IMG/VR virus record: IMGVR_UViG_3300021426_000001
Direction: 5' to 3' (one strand)
DNA length: 64,000 nucleotides
Source of the DNA: a virus
Taxonomy: Duplodnaviria; Caudoviricetes
In this document: positions 6,949 to 61,606 of the stretch, one piece after another
How positions within the stretch are numbered: the first letter of the stretch is position 1
How the letters are laid out: each line of letters opens with the position of its first letter
Program-made: the position numbers and the translations under genes
The notes under the pieces: model-generated
Database searches by the model: none
Told to the model about the DNA's origin: nothing
What the model saw: the letters and a program-made list of their open reading frames with translations, nothing else

Positions 6949-7587
6949 CTAGCAGAAGTAACTCTTGCCGTCTTCGCCGTAAGTAGCGATGAAGTAGTTG
7001 ACGTCATAGTTGTGCGGAAGATATGATATTCCGTTGAAGCTCTCCGGGTCAGCCTTGACCATGTCAACGATGGACTGGAAGTCCCTCTTGAAGTCTTCTA
7101 CGCTCTCGTAGTCTCTGTTATTTATCGGGCAGCGGAACTTCTTCCAAGTCTGAATGCACTTTCCGTTGTCGTCCTGGCCCCAGCCGTAGTGGGTCTTCGG
7201 ATCGTCTGTGCGAACGTTCTCGCTAGCGCAGATGATGTTGTACTTCTCTCCGTCGATGTCGACGCAGATCTCGTTAGCCCAGAAGAGAGGCTGTTCGAGG
7301 CGCTTCGTGTACTTCTCGCCAGCGATAGTGATCTCGTAGTTGAAGTAGTGTTCGAAGTTTCCGTAGCATGACGGATAGAAGAGAGTCAGACCGTCGAACT
7401 CACGGCGAGCGATGGCGCGAGTGACAGCCTCGTACATCTTCTCGGACTTCTTAGAGTGGCGCTTCCTTGCGACCTTCTTCTCCCAGAACGGAAGAACCGT
7501 CTCCTTGAGGTATTTGTAGAAGAACTGGTCACGACTGACGAGGTTGAGTTCTTCGGCGAGATTCTTGAGCTGGTAGATAGTGATCAT
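6949..7587 (-). CDS. hypothetical protein
   Basis: Likely start MITIYQ, since the early promoter lies inside the longer ORF. Confidence 0.7.
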   Translation of the reverse strand: MITIYQLKNLAEELNLVSRDQFFYKYLKETVLPFWEKKVARKRHSKKSEKMYEAVTRAIARREFDGLTLFYPSCYGNFEHYFNYEITIAGEKYTKRLEQPLFWANEICVDIDGEKYNIICASENVRTDDPKTHYGWGQDDNGKCIQTWKKFRCPINNRDYESVEDFKRDFQSIVDMVKADPESFNGISYLPHNYDVNYFIATYGEDGKSYFC

Positions 7588-7617
7588 TGGAGAGTTCCCT
7601 GTTGAAGTTACATTGTC

Positions 7618-7646
7618 AATATAGGATTTTCTCAACAGTTTGTAAA
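7618..7646 (-). promoter_or_regulatory. early promoter
   Basis: TTTACA-17-TATATT; TTTTCTCAA/TTGAGAAAA inverted repeat. Confidence 0.75.
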
Positions 7647-7824: not shown

Positions 7825-7908
7825 TCTCCAGAGAGGGACTCGAACCCTCACGCCCTTTCGGGCACCAGCCCCTCAAGCTGGCGCGTCTACCAATTCCGCC
7901 ACCTGGAG
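7825..7908 (-). tRNA. tRNA-Leu(GAG)
   Basis: Cloverleaf, loop TTGAGGG. Confidence 0.9.
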
Positions 7909-7913
7909 TAAAA

Positions 7914-8048
7914 TCAAGATTCATTTGGATCGGACCGCTCCCTTTAACCACTTGGTTATCCCTCCCCGTATGGAGGGAGACAGGATTCGAACCTGCGAAG
8001 GCGCAATGCCAGCGGTTTTAGAGACCGTGAATTGCTGGATGAATCTTT
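7914..8048 (-). ncRNA. CAGCAA-stem RNA copy 1, carrying circularly permuted Tyr-like tRNA with CUA anticodon
   Basis: AAGATTCAT/ATGAATCTT terminal stem, CAGCAA; tRNA 3' half precedes 5' half. Confidence 0.75.
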
Positions 8049-8050
8049 AG

Positions 8051-8123
8051 CAGGGACTGAGAGGCTCGAACTCCCGACATGCAGTTTTGGAGACTGCCGT
8101 TCTACCAGCTGAACTAAATCCCT
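8051..8123 (-). tRNA. tRNA-Trp(CCA)
   Basis: Cloverleaf, loop CTCCAAA. Confidence 0.92.
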
Positions 8124-8615: not shown

Positions 8616-8736
8616 TCAAGATTCCTTGTTAACTGGGCTCGAACCAGCGACCTCTCGTCTTTGCGACGAGCGCTCTACCAACTGAGCTACAATGCATAGA
8701 AATGGCTGCATAGGATAGAGTTGCTGAGGAATCTTT
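8616..8736 (-). ncRNA. CAGCAA-stem RNA copy 2 with tRNA-like D/anticodon/T cargo
   Basis: AAGATTCCT/AGGAATCTT stem, CAGCAA; GCTCAGTTGGTAGAGC D arm, GCAAA-looped anticodon arm, T arm, no acceptor stem. Confidence 0.7.
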
Positions 8737-8815: not shown

Positions 8816-8900
8816 CGAGATAGAGTTGTCGGATTTGAACCGGCTTGCTTTGATTTTTTGATCATCATTGTGTATCCAAAGAATTTGCTGGATCTATCTC
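8816..8900 (-). ncRNA. CAGCAA-stem RNA copy 3 with T-arm cargo
   Basis: GAGATAGA/TCTATCTC stem, CAGCAA, GCCGGTTCAAATCCGAC T-arm-like hairpin. Confidence 0.65.
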
Positions 8901-9451: not shown

Positions 9452-9564
9452 TCAAGATGTCATACTTATGGCTCCCGGGGTTGGAATCGAACCAACTTCT
9501 TCCGCATCAAGTGCGGTGCTCTCCTCTAGAGCTACCCTGGAAAAGAGTTGCTGTTGGCATCTTT
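9452..9564 (-). ncRNA. CAGCAA-stem RNA copy 4 enclosing a whole tRNA-like cloverleaf with CCA (9469-9541)
   Basis: AAGATGCCA/TGACATCTT stem, CAGCAA; cloverleaf with 5-nt anticodon loop CTTGA. Confidence 0.7.
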
Positions 9565-10314: not shown

Positions 10315-10444
10315 TCAAGATAACATTTCTTAGGAAGCCGAGTCCTGAACCACTAGACGATGGACCCCATACGGATCCAGCTGGATTCGAACCAGCGTTA
10401 CGGCCTTGGGATTTAAGAAAAGATAAATTGCTGTTGTTATCTTT
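10315..10444 (-). ncRNA. CAGCAA-stem RNA copy 5, carrying circularly permuted Glu/Asp-type tRNA body
   Basis: AAGATAACA/TGTTATCTT stem, CAGCAA; order T arm, acceptor closed by a loop, D arm. Confidence 0.75.
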
Positions 10445-10452
10445 TAAGAGTT

Positions 10453-10522
10453 TCAAGATCCGTCTTTTCAACGTAGTCTGATTACCAATCGGATGTTGTA
10501 AGTGATTTGCAGTATGGATCTT
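10453..10522 (-). ncRNA. CAGCAA-stem RNA copy 6 with Thr(GGT)-like anticodon hairpin
   Basis: AAGATCC/GGATCTT stem, CTGCAA; TCCGA-TTGGTAA-TCAGA. Confidence 0.65.
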
Positions 10523-11159: not shown

Positions 11160-11233
11160 TCAAGATAGAGTGGCCTTACGCCACGAGCCTCAAAGAAATG
11201 GTGAAGTTGGTTGTGATTTGCTGTATCTATCTT
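11160..11233 (-). ncRNA. CAGCAA-stem RNA copy 7
   Basis: AAGATAGA/TCTATCTT stem, CAGCAA. Confidence 0.65.
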
Positions 11234-11573: not shown

Positions 11574-11644
11574 TCAAGATGGTGGGGCTAACCCCAGAAT
11601 TCGAATTGCAGGCGAATGATTTTGAGAATCGCTGAACCATCTTT
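11574..11644 (-). ncRNA. CAGCAA-stem RNA copy 8
   Basis: AAGATGGT/ACCATCTT stem, CAGCGA variant. Confidence 0.6.
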
Positions 11645-12931: not shown

Positions 12932-12959
12932 AGAACGTGAGCTTATTGACCTCGTCACT

Positions 12960-13037
12960 TCGGAAATGCTGGAATCGAACCAGCGTCTTCTGCCCACTGG
13001 GGTGCAGCTTCACTTGGCCTTGCTATGATAACTCCCG
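12960..13037 (-). ncRNA. tRNA mimic or pseudo-tRNA, Pro-type acceptor, aberrant anticodon arm
   Basis: CGGGAGT/ATTTCCG, T arm GCTGGTTCGATTCCAGC, no U33 loop. Confidence 0.5.
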
Positions 13038-13145
13038 ATCAAAGGGTTTATCTCACGTAATTTCAATAGCGCTGGAACCAAGAGTCGGAAGAATTATCTC
13101 GAGACTTCTTCCTCCAGTCAGTTCCTCCATGAATCAATTTTCCAG

Positions 13146-13215
13146 CCGATCAACCAGGATTCGAACCTGAATGCGGACAGTCACGCCCTCGCTCTACCAG
13201 TTGAGCTACTGACCG
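13146..13215 (-). ncRNA. tRNA mimic or pseudo-tRNA with 6-nt anticodon loop
   Basis: Intact D arm GCTCAACTGGTAGAGC and T arm; GGGC-GTGACT-GTCC. Confidence 0.5.
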
Positions 13216-13321: not shown

Positions 13322-13380
13322 TCAAGATCCGTTTTTATTCTGCCAAAATAGAATGTTTGTAGAGTTGCAGTATGGATCTT
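13322..13380 (-). ncRNA. CAGCAA-stem RNA copy 9
   Basis: Ends identical to copy 6 (AAGATCCATACTGCAA...ACGGATCTTG), different cargo hairpin. Confidence 0.65.
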
Positions 13381-30965: not shown

Positions 30966-32159
30966 TTACGGCAAGAAGTGTTCTGAGACCTTAGTCCAGT
31001 ACTGTTCCGTCATTTCACGGACTCTCTTGCCAAATTCGGGACCGGGCTTGACGCCCTCTTTGAAGACGAGATCAGAGATCTTCTTCGTGTCGGGCTGGAA
31101 GCCCTTAGCCATTCTGAGCGATACTGGAATCGTCCAGAGCCATTCGGTCTTGTTCTGCATGATAGCGAGAACCGTTCTGTAGTCGCTGCTCACGATCTTG
31201 ACGAGTTCAGTCCAGGAGGGACGAGAGCCATATTGCAGGACGTAACGAGCCCACCTGTAGAACTTGTAGAGTCTCTTTTCATCGTTCGTCATTGTGAGCT
31301 CGGCTTCTGCATTAGCGATGTCGTCGTAAGCGAGAGCCATGACTGCGAAGACGTTGTCGTTTCTCAGATCTGAAACCAAGAGACTGTTTTCGAAAGCAGC
31401 CGTGAAGTTCATGTGTCTGAAGATCGGAATGTGCTTAACGAGATCCATCTGGTCGATGAACTGAAGGAATGTAGAGAGACCGTAGTTCTTCTTGTTGAGA
31501 GAAGTGATCTCCTTGCGGAAGCGTTCGTTAGAGATCTTGCAGAGACCTGGACCAGCGATGTTCATAGCGAGCTTCGTATCTGGATCGATCGTGAAGCCGA
31601 AGTTCGTGGCGAATCTGATGCCGCGAATGATGCGGAGAGCGTCTTCGGAGAAGCGTTCAATCGGATCGCCGACAGCTCGAATGACGCCGTTCTGAAGGTC
31701 AGCGAGACCGTTCATCGGATCGATCAAGTTGCCGTCACCGTCAAGGCCCATAGCGTTGATAGTGAAGTCGCGACGAGCGCAGTCTTCAGCGAAAGTCTTA
31801 GCGAAAGTGACCGTGTCTGGATGACGACCGTCAGTGTAGTTGCCGTCCTGACGGAACTGAGTCACTTCGAACGGATCCCCCATGCCGTAGAAGACGAGCA
31901 GAGTGCCGTGAGCTTCGCCGTTGTTAGATTCAGTTCGGAAGATCTCCTTGATCGTCGGCATCGGCATGTTAGTTGCGATGTCCACGTCGTGAATGTCGAG
32001 CATGCCAGGAATCGGAGAGATGCCGAGCTCAGACATCACGATGTCTCGAACGCAGCCGCCAACCACGTAAGCTTCGAAGCCGAGTCTACGGATTTCACGG
32101 CAGAGTTCCATGCCGCAGTGAAGAGCGTCTGAAGGGATGTGGTTAGTTTCAAATTTCAT
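30966..32159 (-). CDS. cca: tRNA nucleotidyltransferase (CCA-adding/poly(A) polymerase family)
   Basis: VGGCVRD, DVDIAT, RRDFTINAM, EDALRIIRGIRF. Confidence 0.9.
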   Translation of the reverse strand: MKFETNHIPSDALHCGMELCREIRRLGFEAYVVGGCVRDIVMSELGISPIPGMLDIHDVDIATNMPMPTIKEIFRTESNNGEAHGTLLVFYGMGDPFEVTQFRQDGNYTDGRHPDTVTFAKTFAEDCARRDFTINAMGLDGDGNLIDPMNGLADLQNGVIRAVGDPIERFSEDALRIIRGIRFATNFGFTIDPDTKLAMNIAGPGLCKISNERFRKEITSLNKKNYGLSTFLQFIDQMDLVKHIPIFRHMNFTAAFENSLLVSDLRNDNVFAVMALAYDDIANAEAELTMTNDEKRLYKFYRWARYVLQYGSRPSWTELVKIVSSDYRTVLAIMQNKTEWLWTIPVSLRMAKGFQPDTKKISDLVFKEGVKPGPEFGKRVREMTEQYWTKVSEHFLP

Positions 32160-39610: not shown

Positions 39611-39950
39611 ATTTAGTCTCCTGTTTGCATTCTCAATATAGGTAAATCTTCAGTGTTTGTAAATATGAAGTCTAAAAATTTTAGTAATTTTAGTTCGACA
39701 TCAAAGTCGTAACGCTGGAACGAAGCGCAACTCAATGCTGCTATCGGTAAGCGTGCGCCGTTCGCTAGTGAGCTCCTCTAGCATGAATGAACGAACATGG
39801 AGCATCGAAGCAGAAGAGTAGCGTCTTCTGCACACAGCCGCCATTAGCGCCTGAAGATGTAGCTGGAATACAGGATGACCGATCCATAAGCTTCAGGGTG
39901 AGTCTACTCTAAAAGGTCGACGGGCGAAGGAGTCAGCAAAAGACGTTCTT

Positions 39951-48717: not shown

Positions 48718-49245
48718 TCATCTTTTCATCTCCAGTTTCTTGTTAATGTCTACGTTCATATTTGTGAATACGAATCCCGCTTTCTCAATCTCGGCCTCTT
48801 TCTCTCGTCTCAGCTTCTCTGCGTACATAGCGTCAACTTCTGCTTTGAGCTTCATAGCGTCTTCTATCTTGTCGTGGTACTGAATCTTCCTGCCGAGCGG
48901 ATCCTCCCAGATGCAGTTACGGTCTCCGTAAGGCATCCAGCGCCACTCTTCCCACCCGTCATCTTCTAATGTCACGCCATATCGTCCGATCGCGAAGTGC
49001 CAGACCACGAACTTTCCGTTAGCGCACTGACAAATCTTCGTCTGATATTTGTGCTTGGAAGCGTAGATGCTCTTTGCGACTCCTCGGATGATCGACAGCA
49101 GGATGAAGAAGACTGCGATGAGTAGAAAGCCTGATCCCATCACCTTGTCTGTATCTTTTTGTGACAATTCGATAGATGAGCATACCGCGACTCCGCCGAA
49201 TAGGTATGCTAAAGTGAAGAATCCCCATAGATATATCATTCTCAT
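48718..49245 (-). CDS. membrane protein
   Basis: Two N-terminal TM helices. Confidence 0.65.
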   Translation of the reverse strand: MRMIYLWGFFTLAYLFGGVAVCSSIELSQKDTDKVMGSGFLLIAVFFILLSIIRGVAKSIYASKHKYQTKICQCANGKFVVWHFAIGRYGVTLEDDGWEEWRWMPYGDRNCIWEDPLGRKIQYHDKIEDAMKLKAEVDAMYAEKLRREKEAEIEKAGFVFTNMNVDINKKLEMKR

Positions 49246-49248
49246 GAT

Positions 49249-49512
49249 CTACTTGACCTCTCTTGCCTGGAACTGGTTGAGCTGTTCTTGACAGAGCTCG
49301 AAGTCCATTCGAGTCGACTTGATCAGTCTGCCGAGACGCTGACGGTTCTGATCTTGAAGCTTGATCATCTCTTCGACTTGAGTCTGAATTTCGATCATCT
49401 TCTTAGCGTCATGCGTCTCCTGAATCAGCATACCTCCCTCTATGCAGCTAACGATCAATACGATGAGCGCTGCGATAGATGCGAAAACGTTAACTTCTAT
49501 TGTCTTTCCCAT
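49249..49512 (-). CDS. membrane-anchored coiled-coil protein
   Basis: TM helix then coiled coil. Confidence 0.55.
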   Translation of the reverse strand: MGKTIEVNVFASIAALIVLIVSCIEGGMLIQETHDAKKMIEIQTQVEEMIKLQDQNRQRLGRLIKSTRMDFELCQEQLNQFQAREVK

Positions 49513-49521
49513 GAGGTTCTC

Positions 49522-49893
49522 CTACTTGATTTTGAATTTGTCTTCTCTGATCGAGATTTCGAGAATGATGCCCTCAGACTTATATTTCGACTTTATGAGC
49601 ACCACGCATTCATCTAAGCGCTTGAGTGTCTTAATTTCTCTCCATGACCTCAAACCATTTCTGTCTTCATAGACAAAAGAGGCATTGCTAGAGACACCGC
49701 ACTGGAAGATGACTTGGTCATATTTGTACTTCGTGTTCGGATCTTTCGTTTCTCCGACAAGACGTATAGTAGCTACGCTGCTCGGTCCTATTCGCATGGG
49801 AAGCTTGTCTGCTATTCCGAAGTGAATGTCTAGAACATCACGGAAGAGATTGTAGGATTTAGCCTGATCATTGAAGTCTTCGTTGATTCTCAT
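49522..49893 (-). CDS. hypothetical protein, paralog family A
   Basis: TKDPNTKYKYDQVIFQC. Confidence 0.7.
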   Translation of the reverse strand: MRINEDFNDQAKSYNLFRDVLDIHFGIADKLPMRIGPSSVATIRLVGETKDPNTKYKYDQVIFQCGVSSNASFVYEDRNGLRSWREIKTLKRLDECVVLIKSKYKSEGIILEISIREDKFKIK

Positions 49894-49902
49894 CTTGCGC
49901 TC

Positions 49903-50325
49903 CTAGATTCCATCGAACGGTTCTTCTTCATCAGCTGGCCAGTACTTGACGCCGTCCATTCCCTCATCAGATACGAAGCTGGTCTTGTAACCCTTCTTCT
50001 CGAAGATCTCAGCAGCGAGTGACTGCTCTTCACAGCTAGTGAAGTAGATCTCGTCGCTGACTGGAGAGCTCTTGATGTGAGCTTCCACTCGTTCTTGAAC
50101 TCGACTGAGACGAACATCTAGAGCACGCTTCGCAGCATCTTTCTGCCATGTAGAGGCGAGTTCGAGTTCGATCTGGTGGTGAAGCATGTCGATGGCTTTG
50201 TGGTCGCCTTCTTTGACTTTGCCGTCTTTGACGATCTTGCCCCAGATGACAGCTTCGATTGCGCCGTCAGCGAGAGTCAAGATCTCGTCCATGTACGGCT
50301 TGAGGTCTATTTCTTGGTGTTGCAT
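49903..50325 (-). CDS. hypothetical protein
   Basis: After early promoter 50365-50393. Confidence 0.7.
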   Translation of the reverse strand: MQHQEIDLKPYMDEILTLADGAIEAVIWGKIVKDGKVKEGDHKAIDMLHHQIELELASTWQKDAAKRALDVRLSRVQERVEAHIKSSPVSDEIYFTSCEEQSLAAEIFEKKGYKTSFVSDEGMDGVKYWPADEEEPFDGI

Positions 50326-55653: not shown

Positions 55654-56025
55654 ATGGCTATGACATTTGAGCAAGCGATCGACATCCTGGCATCTGAGCC
55701 AGTCATCCTAGAGTCTAAGGGACCGAGAACGGCAGAAGACTGGAAGAAGATCTCAGAGATCTGGCTGAAGAAGAGAGACGAGCAAGTCAAGCTTCTTCAG
55801 GACAACCCTCAGTGGATCGGAAGACCAGCTGAGCTGAGCACTAAGAAGCTCATCGCCAAGTACAACGGCTACTACAAGAGAGCCCTCGAAGAGTTGAAGA
55901 ACTGCGAGGACTACGATGAGCGCATGAGAGAAGAGCAGCGCCAGGCTGACCTCGAGTGGGAGCAGCAGTGCGAGCTAGAGACGATGCGCAACTATGACTT
56001 CGATCGCGGAGACTGGAGATACTAG
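55654..56025 (+). CDS. late protein with ESAG-like motif
   Basis: MTFEQAIDILASEPVILE. Confidence 0.65.
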   Translation: MAMTFEQAIDILASEPVILESKGPRTAEDWKKISEIWLKKRDEQVKLLQDNPQWIGRPAELSTKKLIAKYNGYYKRALEELKNCEDYDERMREEQRQADLEWEQQCELETMRNYDFDRGDWRY

Positions 56026-56195
56026 GTTGAATCATGTCACTAGCGAATTGGCGAAAGATGAGGCCAGAGAACTGCCAGATGAAGAACTTCGATCCCGAGA
56101 AGGCGTTCATTAGCCTGCTGCGGACAAGATCGAACGTCAGCACTTTCTGGCTGTCTGAAGTCATACCGAGGATTCTCGGAAAGAAGAAGCTGTAG

Positions 56196-56228
56196 AAAAA
56201 GAGGATGAGAAAGATCTCATCCTCTTTT
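56196..56228. terminator. bidirectional terminator
   Basis: AAAAAGAGGATGAGA...TCTCATCCTCTTTT between convergent genes. Confidence 0.75.
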
Positions 56229-56229
56229 G

Positions 56230-57315
56230 TTATAGTTCCAGATTTAGCGCTTCATCGATAGTGTCATCCATGTCGAAGTACTTGTATTGACCGAGTCTTC
56301 CGACGAATACCACCTTATCATTCACGATCGCCTTGTACTTTTCGTATAGGGCATTATTCTTTTCATTATTGACTGGATAGTATGGGACTTCTCCCTTCTT
56401 CCATTCTGAGCTGAACTCCCTACTTACGATCGTCTTGTCGCTTCCACGGTCGTTGAACCACTTGTGTTCGATGCTTCGAGTGTATGGTTCTTCGTTTGAA
56501 GTGTAGTTGACGACAGCATTGCCTTGATAGTTCTTCTTGTCATACTCTACCGTCTCGAATCTCACTGAGCGATACTCAAGAGGTCCAAAGCAATAGTCGT
56601 AGTACTCGTCAATGCATCCCGAGTAGTAGATCTTGTCTGCCATCTTGATCCACTTCTCCTTGTCTGCCAAGAAGTCAGTGTTCAGCAAGATGTCTGCTCC
56701 ATCGAACATCCTAGCTATGAGAGCAGTGTAGCCCTCTATCGGAATGCCCTGATACTTGTCGTTGAAGTAGTTGTTGTCGTAAGTGAATCTGAGAGGTATG
56801 CGCTTGATGATCTCCGGTGGAAGCTCTGTGCACTTTCTGCCCCATTGCTTCTCTGTGTAGCCCTTGATCAACTTCTCATAGATCGTTCTGCCCACCATAG
56901 AGATCGCTTGCTCTTCCAAGTTCGTAGGGAAGCACATATTCTCTTTCATCTTCTCATTCAGAATAGCCTCTTCTGCCTGATGCGGAGTGACTACGCCGAA
57001 GAGCTTGCTGAACGTGTTCATGTTGAACGGAAGATTGTAGATCTCGTCTCTGTAGTTAGCGATGGGACTGTTTACGAAGTTGTTGAACTCACCGAACTTG
57101 TTGATGAAGTTCCAGACGTTCTCGTTAGAAGTGTGAAAGATGTGAGCGCCATACTTGTGGACATCAATGCCATCTTTTCGATATGTAAAGCAGTTGCCAG
57201 CGATATGATTGCGCTTTTCGATGACAAGAACATTCTTGCCTTTGTTGATTAGTCTCCATGCAAGGACTGCATTGAAGAGTCCTGCGCCGACTAGCAAAAC
57301 GTCATAATGCTTCAT
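56230..57315 (-). CDS. glf: UDP-galactopyranose mutase
   Basis: VGAGL, HKYGAHIFHT, FTYDNNYFND.YQGIP, PYYPVN, GRLGQYKYFDMD. Confidence 0.95.
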   Translation of the reverse strand: MKHYDVLLVGAGLFNAVLAWRLINKGKNVLVIEKRNHIAGNCFTYRKDGIDVHKYGAHIFHTSNENVWNFINKFGEFNNFVNSPIANYRDEIYNLPFNMNTFSKLFGVVTPHQAEEAILNEKMKENMCFPTNLEEQAISMVGRTIYEKLIKGYTEKQWGRKCTELPPEIIKRIPLRFTYDNNYFNDKYQGIPIEGYTALIARMFDGADILLNTDFLADKEKWIKMADKIYYSGCIDEYYDYCFGPLEYRSVRFETVEYDKKNYQGNAVVNYTSNEEPYTRSIEHKWFNDRGSDKTIVSREFSSEWKKGEVPYYPVNNEKNNALYEKYKAIVNDKVVFVGRLGQYKYFDMDDTIDEALNLEL

Positions 57316-57404
57316 TTCAATTTCTCTCTCAACAGTGTAGTTGAAATTCCTTGTGTAAATGGTAAAATCTGTGCCACCGCAATTATTACAAATAACATTC
57401 ATAC

Positions 57405-57848
57405 TTAATTCTCTAATAATTTATTTCTAAATAATGTTGAACTATAATCGTGCTTTCTTTCATTATAATAAATTTCAATTCCTTCCAAATCCCAGCCCGT
57501 GTGTTTCGTTCCTTTATACTCTTCACCAACGAAACGAATATCAGGTTTGATTATTTTGAGCATATTTAGCAAATCACGTTCTGTATCAAACGGAATAATT
57601 AAATCAGCGTATTTAATAGATGTGATTTGAATCCAGCGTTCAAACGTCGTTTGACAAGGTTTATTTTTTTCATTTCTGTCATTTGTTGGGTCAGTCAATA
57701 AGCCTACAACCAAAAAATCACAATTTCGTTTTGCTTCAGCTAGCATAATATCATGGCCGCAATGGGGACCGAGTTCAAAAGTTGAACAAGTAAATCCTAT
57801 CTTCTTTCCTTCTTTTCTAGCTTGTTCAATCGTATCTAAACTGTCCAT
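57405..57848 (-). CDS. glycerol-3-phosphate cytidylyltransferase-like
   Basis: GFTCSTF...HCGH, RFVGEEY, RKHDYSST. Confidence 0.85.
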   Translation of the reverse strand: MDSLDTIEQARKEGKKIGFTCSTFELGPHCGHDIMLAEAKRNCDFLVVGLLTDPTNDRNEKNKPCQTTFERWIQITSIKYADLIIPFDTERDLLNMLKIIKPDIRFVGEEYKGTKHTGWDLEGIEIYYNERKHDYSSTLFRNKLLEN

Positions 57849-58861
57849 AATTTAATCATTTCCTTAATTTCGTTTAATGTTCTTTGCTTTAATTCATCGG
57901 TGCTATATTTATAAATACGAATCCACTGTGTAAGTTCAGCGATATAGATTTGTTTTTTATAATTCTTGTAATAATTCAATACTACAGCATATTCGTCAGT
58001 TTTATTATATCGTTTCAGCGAATGAAGTAATTTGCCTATATCTAATAACCAAGACGAATATAATTTTTCACTATAAATTGGGTCTATTAAATACAGCTTA
58101 TCATTCATTTTTAGAACATTATCAAGTGAAAAGTCTCCATGACTAAAAGTAATATGCTCATCAAAAAACTTTTGCTCAATCTTCATAGCAGTTATGATAG
58201 ATTTCTTTTCATCCTCAGTTAATGGAATATTACTAAGATGTGAACTTATCCTATCAATATAAGTTTGAAATTGTGCTGCTGAAATAGATTTGATATACTG
58301 TTCTTTATCAAGTAACTCTATGATTTCAAAAATTGTTGGCTCGCTATCGCTTTTAATGTATTCCATAGCAATAGTGTTTCCTATTACACTATGAATTTTT
58401 GGAACATTGAAAAATTTTTTTGAAATTTCAAACCAAGCTATTACATCTTTTGTGTCGTCAGCAGTTTTATAAATTTTTCCATCACGAAGTTCTATTTTAG
58501 CCCCGCTCATACCAGTCTTAATAGTTTCAAATGATATGTCCATAAACTCGTCAGGTTTATATCCCTTATCATCAATATAATAAGAAGCAAGCTTCTTTTG
58601 AAAACTGAGTTCAGTATATTTCACACCGTGCTTCTTAAACCAGTTTCTTATACTTTCTCCATATTTTAGTTCTGCTTCTTCACGCGACGAACAACTTAAA
58701 CTTCCTCTCGCAGTAACATAATAAATGTCCCAGCCCTCATCGTATAACTTATTTAATTTTTCAATAAGTTTTAGATTGGGTTCAGCATTATCAAAATCAT
58801 GATTTAGCGTGAATGAAATACAATCATCAATGTCAACACATATACTGTTAGGATAAGCCAT
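57836..58861 (-). CDS. HAD phosphatase (capsule-biosynthesis type) fused to APH/choline-kinase domain
   Basis: DIDD, TARG, YIDDK; HGDFSLDN and LIDP. Confidence 0.8.
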   Translation of the reverse strand: MAYPNSICVDIDDCISFTLNHDFDNAEPNLKLIEKLNKLYDEGWDIYYVTARGSLSCSSREEAELKYGESIRNWFKKHGVKYTELSFQKKLASYYIDDKGYKPDEFMDISFETIKTGMSGAKIELRDGKIYKTADDTKDVIAWFEISKKFFNVPKIHSVIGNTIAMEYIKSDSEPTIFEIIELLDKEQYIKSISAAQFQTYIDRISSHLSNIPLTEDEKKSIITAMKIEQKFFDEHITFSHGDFSLDNVLKMNDKLYLIDPIYSEKLYSSWLLDIGKLLHSLKRYNKTDEYAVVLNYYKNYKKQIYIAELTQWIRIYKYSTDELKQRTLNEIKEMIKLWTV

Positions 58862-58866
58862 ACTTG

Positions 58867-59565
58867 TTATTCCAATGTATTTTTTGTTATCCTTCCGTTA
58901 TCCAAATAAGAATATACTGGAGGATTACATGTTATTAAATGATTTGATTGAACCCATAGTGTGAATAGTAATAATTCAGCTAAATGAGCTATACTTCTAT
59001 TTACAACAGTATATTTCGTCAAATCACATTTATTTAATAGCAAATCAAACAACCATTCACAATAGGAATTAAAAATTTTTCCTGTTGTTATAAACATATT
59101 GTGTCTATAATGCCAGTTATTATTTAAAATAGTTATAGCATCATTATACATATTAGGATAATGGGTGTGTATCACATCTAATATATCAAACAATTGAGTT
59201 TTTAAGCATCCACAGCATATACCATTATTTGACATAAAACGCTCAGCTAATGTGACTTGATACATACAATTAGAGTCAAATGTACTGCTATGAACTATAA
59301 TATCGTTGGATTTTAATTTTTCTTTTATATCGTTTTCGGATAATCTAAACGTTCTTTTTCTTTGTTCAAACCCAACTATATCTTCATCTTTTACTATATT
59401 TTTCCAACCATAATATAACCCAGTTAATTCACAAAAATATGGGTTATACTTATCAATATTATCTTTATCGTGTGTTATGTCGGAAAAATATGTTTCATGC
59501 ATAGGAGTCAATGGAATGTTTATCCCATGTGAATTTCCGGCTACTATTATTTTTATATTACTCAA
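58867..59565 (-). CDS. DUF4422 (GT111-like galactofuranosyltransferase)
   Basis: DNI..YNPYFCELTGLY..WKN, NMFI, YCEWLF. Confidence 0.75.
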   Translation of the reverse strand: MSNIKIIVAGNSHGINIPLTPMHETYFSDITHDKDNIDKYNPYFCELTGLYYGWKNIVKDEDIVGFEQRKRTFRLSENDIKEKLKSNDIIVHSSTFDSNCMYQVTLAERFMSNNGICCGCLKTQLFDILDVIHTHYPNMYNDAITILNNNWHYRHNMFITTGKIFNSYCEWLFDLLLNKCDLTKYTVVNRSIAHLAELLLFTLWVQSNHLITCNPPVYSYLDNGRITKNTLE

Positions 59566-59572
59566 AATATAC

Positions 59573-60223
59573 CTATCTAGTTATTTTCATACCAATAAAT
59601 TTGTTCTTTTTATTTTTCCAAATGAGCCAGGCACCAAAAAGAAATTCAGTAAAATAACCACAAATTCTACACGGAAGTTCCCTTCCAAAAGTTTTTTCAG
59701 CTAACCTATAGTTTTCAAGCACATCAAAAATAAATGAGCAATACTCATTTATAACTTCTTTCTTTGCTATAAACATATTACACATAATATGATAATCACC
59801 ATTTAGGAAATTAGTACATATATCATAATATTCTTGTCCGACATAATGTTTAGCAAAAATCAAGAATTTCTGTGTATCTAACCATTTGCCATTTCTAATA
59901 AGCCAAGTTTTAATAGGTTTCATAGTTGAATAACCTATAGAACGATTAGACAATATGTCATTATCTTTAAGGATCTCTTTAATCTCATTTTCAGAAAGTA
60001 AGTTTCCATTATCATTAACAAAATATCTTCTATAATGTTCAAGTCCGACAATATCATCATCAACATGCTTCCATAAATAGTAAAGCCCAGTGAGCTCACA
60101 GTACCACGGATTCAGAAAGTCAATGTTGTCGCCCTCATGCGGCTGATCAATCAAGAACTTCTCTCTGATGTTGTCTAATGGCAGAAAACGATTCCTGCTG
60201 CTTCCCACGACGTAAATCTTCAT
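59573..60223 (-). CDS. DUF4422 (GT111-like galactofuranosyltransferase)
   Basis: GDNIDFLNPWYCELTGLYYLWK, GLEHYRRYF, NMFIAK. Confidence 0.8.
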   Translation of the reverse strand: MKIYVVGSSRNRFLPLDNIREKFLIDQPHEGDNIDFLNPWYCELTGLYYLWKHVDDDIVGLEHYRRYFVNDNGNLLSENEIKEILKDNDILSNRSIGYSTMKPIKTWLIRNGKWLDTQKFLIFAKHYVGQEYYDICTNFLNGDYHIMCNMFIAKKEVINEYCSFIFDVLENYRLAEKTFGRELPCRICGYFTEFLFGAWLIWKNKKNKFIGMKITR

Positions 60224-60224
60224 T

Positions 60225-61523
60225 TTATACGTGTCCCTTCATTGTGAATTTCAGGTCACGATCGAACGTGACTCTGTTGCAGTTGAAAATTCTCTTTTTC
60301 TTATATATCATCCAAGGTCCGAGGAGATACTCTCCAATGTAGCCGTCAATCCTCGGAATCTTGAACTTGTGTCGATTGTCGAACTCTCTTAGCACCGGAA
60401 ACAGGAACTGGCAGTACTCGTCAAGCAGCTCTCTGCGGCAGATGAGCATGTTGCCCTCGTAGACGCCAGGACATACCATTATGTACTCGAAGAAGTCAGC
60501 CATCTCTTTTCCGTGCATATCTTGGACGACTTTGAGAGCTAGCTTCAGCTCATCTCCCTTCTTTGCGTAGATCATGCTCTGGAATGCTGTGTCGTATGGC
60601 CACTTGTACATGATGGCGTCACCCTGAGGAAGGATCTGCTCTATCTCACGCTTTCCTAGAATCATACGCTGATCTAAGCAGAAGTATCTGCGATAGTGGC
60701 ATAGACCTACGATGTCGGCAATAGAGTGCTTCCACAGATGATAGAGACCAGTCAGCTCGCAGTACCACGGATTGAGATTATCGATGTTGTCGCCATCGTG
60801 TGGCTGATCGACATAGAATCTAGTAAAAGTGTCGGTCGGAAGGTCTAGAAACTTGTTCTTCGAGCTGCCGACGATGTAGATCTCTACAGAATCCTTTTTC
60901 TCTTCTTTATGTTCAAAAAATTTCATTATGCGTTCATAGTGTTCATGTGCGAACCACTCCACTGATCTATGTCCAGCACCCTCGTAACCTGCGGCGTGTC
61001 CGTGCGGATCATAGATGACCTTGATCTTTGGATTGCTAGTAATCAAATTTGGGTTATGCGTTATGACGACAAGCTTATATTTCAGATTTTCCTTTTCTAT
61101 CTGCCAAAAAGCATGTTCATCATAGTCCATGTGTTCCCACTCAGTTATGAAAGCTGGATCTTCATTTCGATCTAGCATCCTTTTCAGGCGCTCTTTGTAT
61201 TTTTCAATAGCGTATAGCCAAATCCTAGATGATTTTATGTCTGGACCTTCTCGCTTGACACCATCGACATCAGGATCATATAGATAGTGAACGAATCTAA
61301 GATGGACCTTATTTTCTATCACTATCTCGAACATGTCGCCATCCTGATAGGGATGTTTTACACAGGCAACTGAGAAATCATTCCAATTCACCTTTTCCCA
61401 GTTCGTAATGAGATAGAACATCGATTTGAAGTCAAGATCTATCCATGCAAAAGGATTTGTGTTACCTTCTCCAGCGATCTTAGAAATGAAGTTGCTTATG
61501 CAGCAGTTGCCTATTAAATTCAT
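60225..61523 (-). CDS. N-terminal DUF1796/DUF1919-like domain fused to DUF4422
   Basis: IGNCC...NPFAW...RFVHY; GDNIDNLNPWYCELTGLY, HYRRYF; late promoter 61530-61537. Confidence 0.75.
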   Translation of the reverse strand: MNLIGNCCISNFISKIAGEGNTNPFAWIDLDFKSMFYLITNWEKVNWNDFSVACVKHPYQDGDMFEIVIENKVHLRFVHYLYDPDVDGVKREGPDIKSSRIWLYAIEKYKERLKRMLDRNEDPAFITEWEHMDYDEHAFWQIEKENLKYKLVVITHNPNLITSNPKIKVIYDPHGHAAGYEGAGHRSVEWFAHEHYERIMKFFEHKEEKKDSVEIYIVGSSKNKFLDLPTDTFTRFYVDQPHDGDNIDNLNPWYCELTGLYHLWKHSIADIVGLCHYRRYFCLDQRMILGKREIEQILPQGDAIMYKWPYDTAFQSMIYAKKGDELKLALKVVQDMHGKEMADFFEYIMVCPGVYEGNMLICRRELLDEYCQFLFPVLREFDNRHKFKIPRIDGYIGEYLLGPWMIYKKKRIFNCNRVTFDRDLKFTMKGHV

Positions 61524-61606
61524 ACAGTCTATTTATATCAAGTCCGATTGTTGATCGCGTGCATTCTCTGCTTCTTAAGCTCATTCTGAAAATCCATATC
61601 TTTTCC

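Follow-up and report, generated by a model that had tools for sequence, protein, structure and literature searches.

Between two tRNA genes of a Caudoviricetes phage lies an element (positions 7914-8048, minus strand) that folds as a circularly permuted, bacterial-type tRNA-Tyr, with its acceptor stem closed by a short loop and its ends paired into a conserved handle. The element was found in a DNA stretch of 64,000 nucleotides (IMG/VR record IMGVR_UViG_3300021426_000001), the whole of which is referred to below as the window. The fold is conserved and covaries across 16 distinct orthologues, and two alternative pairings of the anticodon stem are both seen in them. From what is found in related phages, the most likely role of the element is as partner of a Ro60-like phage protein and not as a reader of stop codons. 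We consider it probable (about 0.62) that the product is a stable Y-RNA-like RNA, whose handle would be bound by the Ro60-like protein and whose Tyr body would be shown to a tRNA-Tyr-specific partner.

Layout, ancestry and covariation of the permuted tRNA-Tyr

The element belongs to an array of at least 43 tRNA genes on the minus strand of the window, and the operon runs to a terminator at 7698-7672. The ends of the RNA unit are probably set by processing of both neighbouring tRNAs. In the native gene order, no tRNA is seen at this position by ARAGORN or by the Rfam tRNA model. A sequence-only reading had placed the 3' half of a bacterial-type tRNA-Tyr ahead of its 5' half, and this order is borne out at 8027-7933 of the minus strand; the rejoined halves (7965-7934 followed by 8023-7971) are called by ARAGORN as an 85-nt tRNA with anticodon cta, in agreement with the CUA tRNA proposed there. 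The short linker described between the halves is present, although it measures five nucleotides (UACGG) and not four (TACG), and the CGGUC said to be duplicated occurs at 8027-8023 and at 7937-7933. The 9-bp closing stem, the CAGCAA bulge and the extra nucleotide at 7979 were absent from that reading. The features of the element are as follows.

7909..8049, minus: whole RNA unit, filling the interval between tRNA-Trp(cca) and tRNA-Leu(gag)
8050-8123, minus: flanking tRNA-Trp(cca) (ARAGORN)
7825-7908, minus: flanking tRNA-Leu(gag) (ARAGORN)
8039..8047, minus: handle 5' strand AAGAUUCAU, paired with 7924-7916 in the MFE fold
8032..8037, minus: CAGCAA bulge on the 5' side of the handle; alignment columns 11-15 are invariant in the 16 orthologues
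8024..8028, minus: 5' copy (ACGGU) of the 5' strand of the anticodon stem, able to close an anticodon hairpin locally
8027-8012, minus: local hairpin CGGU / CUCUAAA / ACCG(C)
8017..8023, minus: anticodon-loop sequence CUCUAAA; position 34 (8021) is C here and G in relatives
8012..8016, minus: anticodon-stem 3' strand ACCGC, partner 7938-7934, with both-sided change in 3/5 pairs
7997..8011, minus: class II (long) variable arm of 15 nt, bacterial tRNA-Tyr style; its 3-bp stem is 100% paired and two pairs covary
7980..7996, minus: T arm, stem GCAGG/CCUGU and loop UUCGAAU, 100% paired
7979, minus: extra C between T stem and acceptor stem
7959..7978, minus: closed 7-bp acceptor hairpin (3' strand 7978-7972, 5' strand 7965-7959)
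7971, minus: A73, invariant in 16/16, as is G1:C72
7970-7966, minus: acceptor linker/loop UACGG, 5 nt
7958-7957, minus: U8 A9; the region 7939..7958 also holds the D arm and position 26
7956-7940, minus: D arm with Tyr-type loop AAGUGGUUAAA, which is invariant; the stem of the arm covaries
7933..7938, minus: 3' copy GCGGU plus C, the true anticodon-stem 5' strand
7916..7924, minus: handle 3' strand AUGAAUCUU; the G after it, at 7915, is conserved

The flanks thus form a 9-bp stem (8047-8039 with 7924-7916) and an asymmetric loop of 11 and 8-9 nt. A73, G1:C72 and the long variable arm are identity elements of bacterial TyrRS.

Orthologues were found with a Tyr-specific pattern in IMG/VR and metagenomes, which gave 17 distinct sequences, 16 of which were aligned. 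These 16 come from rumen and other phage contigs and share the permuted order, and an identical copy of the element is present on an independent metagenome contig (L073). As in the window, the element directly follows tRNA-Trp(cca) in L043, L054, L052 and L019. A normal tRNA-Tyr(gta) is encoded elsewhere in the array in L052 and L019, the stretches that cover it, and in the window itself. Ten of the orthologues are called as tRNA-Tyr(gta) when rejoined. Real tRNA-Tyr genes from a Bacillota MAG and a Gammaproteobacteria MAG are identical to the element from the D loop to the anticodon arm, and its variable arm is near identical to the arms of real tRNA-Tyr genes in L085 and L084. Judged by sequence, the element is a descendant of bacterial tRNA-Tyr(GUA), because its orthologues keep GUA and real tRNA-Tyr genes share its sequence. 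The extra nucleotide between T stem and acceptor stem is found in the window and its close clade, and is absent from L019, from the L028 group and from normal tRNAs.

The INPHARED phage set held no close relatives of the element, its matches being confined to the neighbouring tRNAs, and exact words of the element gave one chance match to a tRNA-Ile in IMG/VR and otherwise none. No relatives were found for the adjacent ORF (6949-7635). A distant Tyr-like member is present in a marine metagenome (L067 1740-1894, the same as L074); its closing stem is spelled differently, its CAGCAA bulge is the same, and an A-CCA is encoded between its acceptor 3' strand and the loop.

In the 16-sequence alignment, 90.5% of the cells of the permuted cloverleaf and handle are paired, compared with 38-48% when partners are slid, and both-sided changes occur in 15 of the 32 pairs. 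The covariation score of 0.360 was reached by none of 500 shuffles. Since 16 distinct orthologues share the same order, pairing and covariation, a chance origin of the fold is excluded. The acceptor hairpin is 96.4% paired, with both-sided change at five of its seven pairs, and its loop ranges from 5 to 22 nt across orthologues; in the handle stem, pair 1 is AU or GC and pair 6 takes four pair types. Identity among representatives is 0.90-0.97 in the T arm, D arm, CAGCAA bulge and anticodon loop, but just 0.26-0.31 in the linkers and acceptor loop, and the acceptor stems are 0.57-0.61 identical across orthologues.

The anticodon-stem 3' strand can pair either with the distal copy of its partner over 5 bp, which is the true tRNA pairing, or with the local copy over 3-4 bp, which forms an anticodon hairpin. 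The two pairings are equal in nearest-neighbour energy (-35.0 and -34.9 kcal/mol). The long-range stem is kept in 83.8% of cells, versus 53.8% for the local hairpin, and its terminal pair covaries (G..C in most orthologues, A..U in L052 and L065). L066 and L054 differ at four positions, three of which represent one stem position, in each of the two copies and in the strand that both pair with. This triple co-change indicates that both pairings are maintained, which backs the earlier suggestion that the duplicated CGGUC permits two alternative structures. It was also considered whether the free 5' copy might pair with the conserved CCG that follows the 3' copy; such a pairing is inconsistent with L054 and L066.

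Other observations were made in the window. Two tRNA-like genes called by ARAGORN on the minus strand have abnormal anticodon loops, of four bases ('ccag') at 12959-13038 and of two bases ('ga') at 13145-13215. On the plus strand, the Rfam cow-rumen-2 RNA is matched over its full length at 39804-39910 (98.3 bits, against a gathering score of 66). A low-GC island at 56000-61600 (GC 0.29 at 58-60 kb) encodes a UDP-galactopyranose mutase (GLF), a DUF4422 glycosyltransferase-like protein and a kinase-like protein, and may be a sugar-modification cassette acquired from elsewhere.

The CAGCAA handle and the Ro60-like protein

The handle is of a recurrent type, a 7-9 bp AAGAU/AUCUU stem with a CAGCAA bulge. 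As in the rest of its family, the element has a covarying RAGAU-N / N'-AUCUY closing stem and a C[AU]GC[AG]A bulge on the 5' side. Nine handle elements are present in the window array, with CAGCAA identical or near identical in all nine. The eight other inter-tRNA elements were checked and have the same handle, with variable stem bases that are different yet complementary.

8616-8736, 8816-8900, 9452-9564, 10315-10444, 10453-10522, 11160-11233, 11574-11644 and 13322-13380, minus: eight sister handle RNAs

The cargo of these sisters consists of one Glu-like permuted tRNA body, two normal-order tRNA-like bodies with 5-nt anticodon loops and, in the rest, short hairpins. A pattern of handle plus T loop matched 52 IMG/VR stretches, most of which share a build of handle, T arm, closed acceptor hairpin, D arm and closing stem. 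Over all fetched loci, a matching closing strand was present at 128 of 189 distinct handle starts, versus 26.3 ± 4.5 in a control where handle starts were mismatched with downstream regions, and 107 closed handle elements lie in the fetched loci of other phage contigs.

We found no paper or Rfam family that describes the CAGCAA handle, and the phage branch that carries it is large and apparently undescribed. With Rfam at E 10 across the array, no YrlA, Y_RNA or other family fell on the element (7914-8048). A whalefall-1 match of 17 bits was dismissed as noise. The sequence GGUCCGA at 7936-7930, which is similar to the motif of metazoan Y RNAs, was considered and rejected, as it is on the wrong stem strand, originates in the Tyr anticodon stem and is not a general feature of the family. 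In related phage contigs, two arrays with handle RNAs also contain a tRNA with a UUA anticodon, which would read ochre UAA (L045 5175-5249 and L032 3019-3093).

The handle co-occurs with DUF2828, and the DUF2828 protein of a relative has a Ro60-like fold. Of 10 other handle-bearing phage records, 9 encode DUF2828 and the tenth is just 58% complete; the base rate of DUF2828 is 709 in 50,697 phage records. In G001, a relative collinear with the window at 67-87% identity, the protein combines DUF2828 with DUF7788 and weakly matches the vWA domain of Ro60, and its gene lies ~50 kb from the tRNA array. The AlphaFold model of this protein (pLDDT 79.6, pTM 0.75) has as its top 13 PDB fold matches Ro60/TROVE structures throughout, all over full length, the best being the Ro60 of Thermus phage phiLo (9KOP, E 3.8e-8). 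A PDB sequence search with the DUF2828 protein gave no match; the likeness came from the fold search.

In G001, a handle (stem, CAGCAA bulge and GGUUCG loop) is also present in the leader just upstream of the ribosome-binding site of the DUF2828 gene, which suggests autoregulation of this gene. The next gene upstream encodes an Rnl1-type RNA ligase; the Rnl1 of T4 seals broken anticodon loops. These observations in relatives make the handle a putative binding site of the phage's Ro60-like protein (DUF2828 plus vWA). The handle itself is without the GNCGAA Ro60 motif.

In the cultured DUF2828 phages Archie, Aeh1, wV8, A511 and FADO, the handle was not above a reversed-pattern control and no YrlA match lay near the gene. 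The pairing of handle and DUF2828 is therefore not universal, and the partner RNAs of wV8, A511 and FADO, if any, must differ. In these three (L088, Escherichia phage wV8; L089, Listeria phage A511; L090, Bacillus phage FADO) the DUF2828 gene, labelled 'RNA-binding protein', adjoins the tRNA array. A sub-threshold ROOL RNA match lies just upstream in A511 (87.5 bits, versus a gathering score of 99.1).

We propose that a stable small RNA of ~140 nt would be released from the phage tRNA operon by processing of tRNA-Trp and tRNA-Leu, and that its ends would pair into the conserved handle with the CAGCAA bulge. The handle would hold out a complete permuted bacterial-type tRNA-Tyr body, its acceptor closed by a short loop, in a YrlA-type architecture. 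The phage's Ro60-like protein (DUF2828 plus vWA) would bind the handle, and the Tyr body would present A73, G1:C72, the long variable arm and the anticodon loop to a tRNA-Tyr-specific partner. The Tyr features under selection point to a specific client that reads features of tRNA-Tyr; TyrRS, a modification or repair enzyme, or a host nuclease attacking tRNA-Tyr may be named as speculative candidates. The sequence-only reading had offered a tRNA mimic with a loop-closed acceptor as one of its two possibilities, and this is essentially what the 16 orthologues and their covarying permuted cloverleaf support.

Comparison with known RNAs

Over 250 bacteria and phages have YrlA Y RNAs with tRNA-like domains beside Ro60 (Chen et al. 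2014, PMC4201824). YrlA has been described as a circularly permuted tRNA with a closed acceptor, and a dimeric-tRNA origin has been proposed for it (Wang et al. 2018, bioRxiv 10.1101/312249). The earlier statement that no phage examples of permuted tRNAs were known is outdated, as YrlA RNAs from bacteria and phages have been likened to circularly permuted tRNAs whose acceptor stems are closed (PMC4201824; bioRxiv 10.1101/312249).

The element resembles YrlA (RF02553) in that its paired ends form a stem, which is protein-binding in YrlA and predicted to be so here. In both, the tRNA-like order runs from the anticodon-stem 3' strand through the variable region, T arm, closed acceptor hairpin and D arm to the anticodon-stem 5' strand, and both occur in phages. 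Covariation on the 16 orthologues places this permuted domain inside a terminal stem, and the YrlA consensus has the same order. However, the handle differs from that of YrlA, with AAGAU/AUCUU and a CAGCAA bulge in place of the Ro60 motif GNCGAA(N)G: the basal stem AAGAUUCAU is followed by CAGCAA, no GNCGAA(N0-1)G is present there, and the only CGAA of the element is in its T loop. RF02553 (gathering score 69 bits) gave no match on the element even at E 10, and sister elements in other phages reached sub-threshold scores of 33-39 bits against it (E 3e-7 to 3e-3). Unlike YrlA, the element has as its likely partner a DUF2828-type Ro60-like protein and not a canonical TROVE Ro60, and it lies inside a tRNA array and not beside the protein gene. 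It has also retained the Tyr anticodon loop in full, along with A73 and a class II variable arm, all of which YrlA has lost. Y-RNA-like tRNA mimics are already known; what is new here is the handle and the likely DUF2828-type partner.

Thermus phage phiLo has a Ro60 with the RNAs Yrl1 and Yrl2 (PMC12135203; PDB 9KOP, 9L5Y). As in phiLo, a phage-encoded Ro60-fold ring protein would go with phage-encoded partner RNAs, a partnership that is predicted in the present case. In contrast to the element, the Yrl RNAs of phiLo were picked by a CGAA motif beside the gene and are not described as tRNA-like, and the phiLo Ro60 and the G001 DUF2828 protein share ~16% sequence identity.

Permuted tRNA genes are reported for Cyanidioschyzon merolae, green algae and Thermofilum pendens (Soma 2007; Maruyama 2010; Chan 2011, all cited in 10.1101/312249). 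Like these algal and archaeal genes, the element encodes its 3' half first, has its acceptor closed in the precursor and has ends that pair near the anticodon region, and its halves rejoin to a standard tRNA (ARAGORN) bar one extra nucleotide between T and acceptor stems. However, the known genes have a bulge-helix-bulge that is cut by splicing endonuclease, followed by ligation to a circle, and no such motif is present here. No splicing endonuclease was found in the relative G001, and the anticodon-stem strand is duplicated in the element, not split.

Alternative roles and biological meaning

One alternative would refine the best explanation and not exclude it. In a two-piece mimic, RNase P would open the acceptor hairpin, the product would be trimmed to A73, the phage nucleotidyltransferase would add CCA, and TyrRS would bind or charge the RNA, the handle and acceptor stem keeping the pieces together. 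The strict conservation of A73, G1:C72 (both invariant in 16 of 16 orthologues) and the anticodon loop exceeds the needs of a scaffold and leaves room for such a processed, chargeable form, and the variable arm is conserved as well. In M. smegmatis, the YrlA RNA likewise has an acceptor stem of 7 bp; RNase P cleaves this RNA in vitro, and CCA is added to it in vivo (PMC4201824). The marine variant with its encoded A-CCA (L067/L074) fits the same scheme, as does an enzyme encoded by the phage:

30966-32159, minus: 397-aa protein with a PolyA_pol head domain (E 1.4e-28), candidate CCA-adding tRNA nucleotidyltransferase or poly(A) polymerase

With a candidate CCA-type nucleotidyltransferase in the phage, a cleaved, CCA-ended form in two pieces would be possible. 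However, the acceptor loop is merely 5-6 nt in many copies, the extra nucleotide between T and acceptor stems may disturb the geometry required by RNase P, EF-Tu or the synthetase, and most YrlA RNAs are not cleaved (Wang 2018, bioRxiv 10.1101/312249). We treat the two-piece form as a tentative and rather unlikely extension.

The element might also be a decoy that soaks up or blocks a host defence nuclease directed at tRNA-Tyr, with or without the Ro60-like protein and Rnl1. By analogy this is plausible, since tRNA-Tyr is a known target of anti-phage nucleases: it is documented as a target of Retron-Eco7 PtuAB and of Septu, which cuts the variable loop, and phage escape by making tRNA-Tyr is reported (bioRxiv 10.1101/2023.03.15.532788, PMC12673091, PMC11555353, PMC13096335). 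Precisely the variable arm and the anticodon loop are retained in the mimic, and Rnl1 adjoins the Ro60-like gene in G001. The role is nonetheless doubtful, as it leaves the conservation of A73 unexplained and sister elements show other tRNA bodies or non-tRNA cargo.

The amber anticodon calls for separate consideration. In amber suppressor tRNA-Tyr of the E. coli supF type, G34C gives CUA, a change that is tolerated by TyrRS, and the element likewise has a bacterial tRNA-Tyr body with G34C. The supF-type suppressors and the suppressor tRNAs of stop-codon-recoded phages are contiguous, CCA-ended and of standard geometry, whereas the element has a permuted order, a sealed acceptor and an extra minihelix nucleotide (the C at 7979), and TAG is a normal stop in this phage. 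CUA sits in a 7-nt loop with U33 (8023-8017), on a stem that has 5 bp when formed with the 3' copy and 4 bp when formed with the local one. The loop reads CUGUAAA throughout the close clade except in this phage (CUCUAAA). Within that clade the loops are 0.95-0.97 identical in pairwise comparison, the window's G34C being the sole change. Among the 16 orthologues, GUA is found in 13, CUA in this phage only and GGA in L019 only. On this comparison, CUA is a single G34C substitution of this lineage and not a decoding anticodon. The substitution would yield a Ro60-tethered, tyrosine-accepting RNA that pairs with UAG, either a conditional split amber suppressor or a tyrosyl donor, and we regard this as quite improbable.

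The second possibility offered by the sequence-only reading was a latent amber suppressor that would be cleaved, ligated and given CCA. In one such scheme, leader and trailer would be cut, the halves ligated to a circle (for example by Rnl1) and the acceptor opened to give tRNA-Tyr(CUA). The rejoined sequence is indeed a recognisable CUA tRNA, both CGGUC copies are conserved, and an Rnl1-type ligase and a CCA-type enzyme are present in this phage group. In the relatives, however, the element has GUA and shares its array with a normal tRNA-Tyr(gta), the flanks are without a bulge-helix-bulge, and the minihelix has its extra nucleotide. No tRNA splicing endonuclease (EndA, PF01974) domain was found in G001, the closest relative (98% complete), while four archaeal controls matched. 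The same handle, moreover, encloses non-tRNA cargo and occurs in an mRNA leader. TAG was correctly described as an ordinary stop: within the window it ends 30 of 100 ORFs, code 11 gives a coverage of 87.5%, and reading TAG as sense adds no coverage, so that neither a need for read-through nor a reassignment of TAG is apparent.

Four ORFs of 140, 123, 87 and 175 aa (48718-50325, minus) share one frame and are separated by single TAG codons alone, and this run is the only TAG read-through candidate within the window. It would speak for suppression, but each ORF has its own Met 3-4 codons past the stop, so that these are probably separate genes, and the run was rejected as a read-through target. 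A working suppressor role of the element is very unlikely.

It is hardly credible that the element is a functionless remnant of tRNA-Tyr genes duplicated in tandem, or an artefact of rearrangement or assembly. The order would result from a tandem pair of tRNA genes, 5 nt apart, that had lost sequence on both sides, and a dimeric-tRNA origin has been proposed for YrlA (Wang 2018, bioRxiv 10.1101/312249), but 16 orthologues from independent assemblies show compensatory changes in every helix, an identical copy lies on the independent contig L073, the divergence of the acceptor stems (0.57-0.61 identical) shows that the orthologues are not one recent clone, and conserved functional loops, drifting linkers (0.26-0.31 identical) and covarying helices are not those of a decaying relic.

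For the biology of these phages, one false lead is removed: the amber anticodon is a single lineage-specific substitution and does not speak for stop-codon suppression. Y RNAs with tRNA-like domains are known, and the present member bears on the purpose of their tRNA-shaped part. The element is unusually informative in this regard, as the TyrRS identity features, the anticodon loop and two exclusive pairings are all under selection. The predicted Ro60-like particle would be tied to the phage-host conflict over tRNA-Tyr, which is the target of several recent defence systems.
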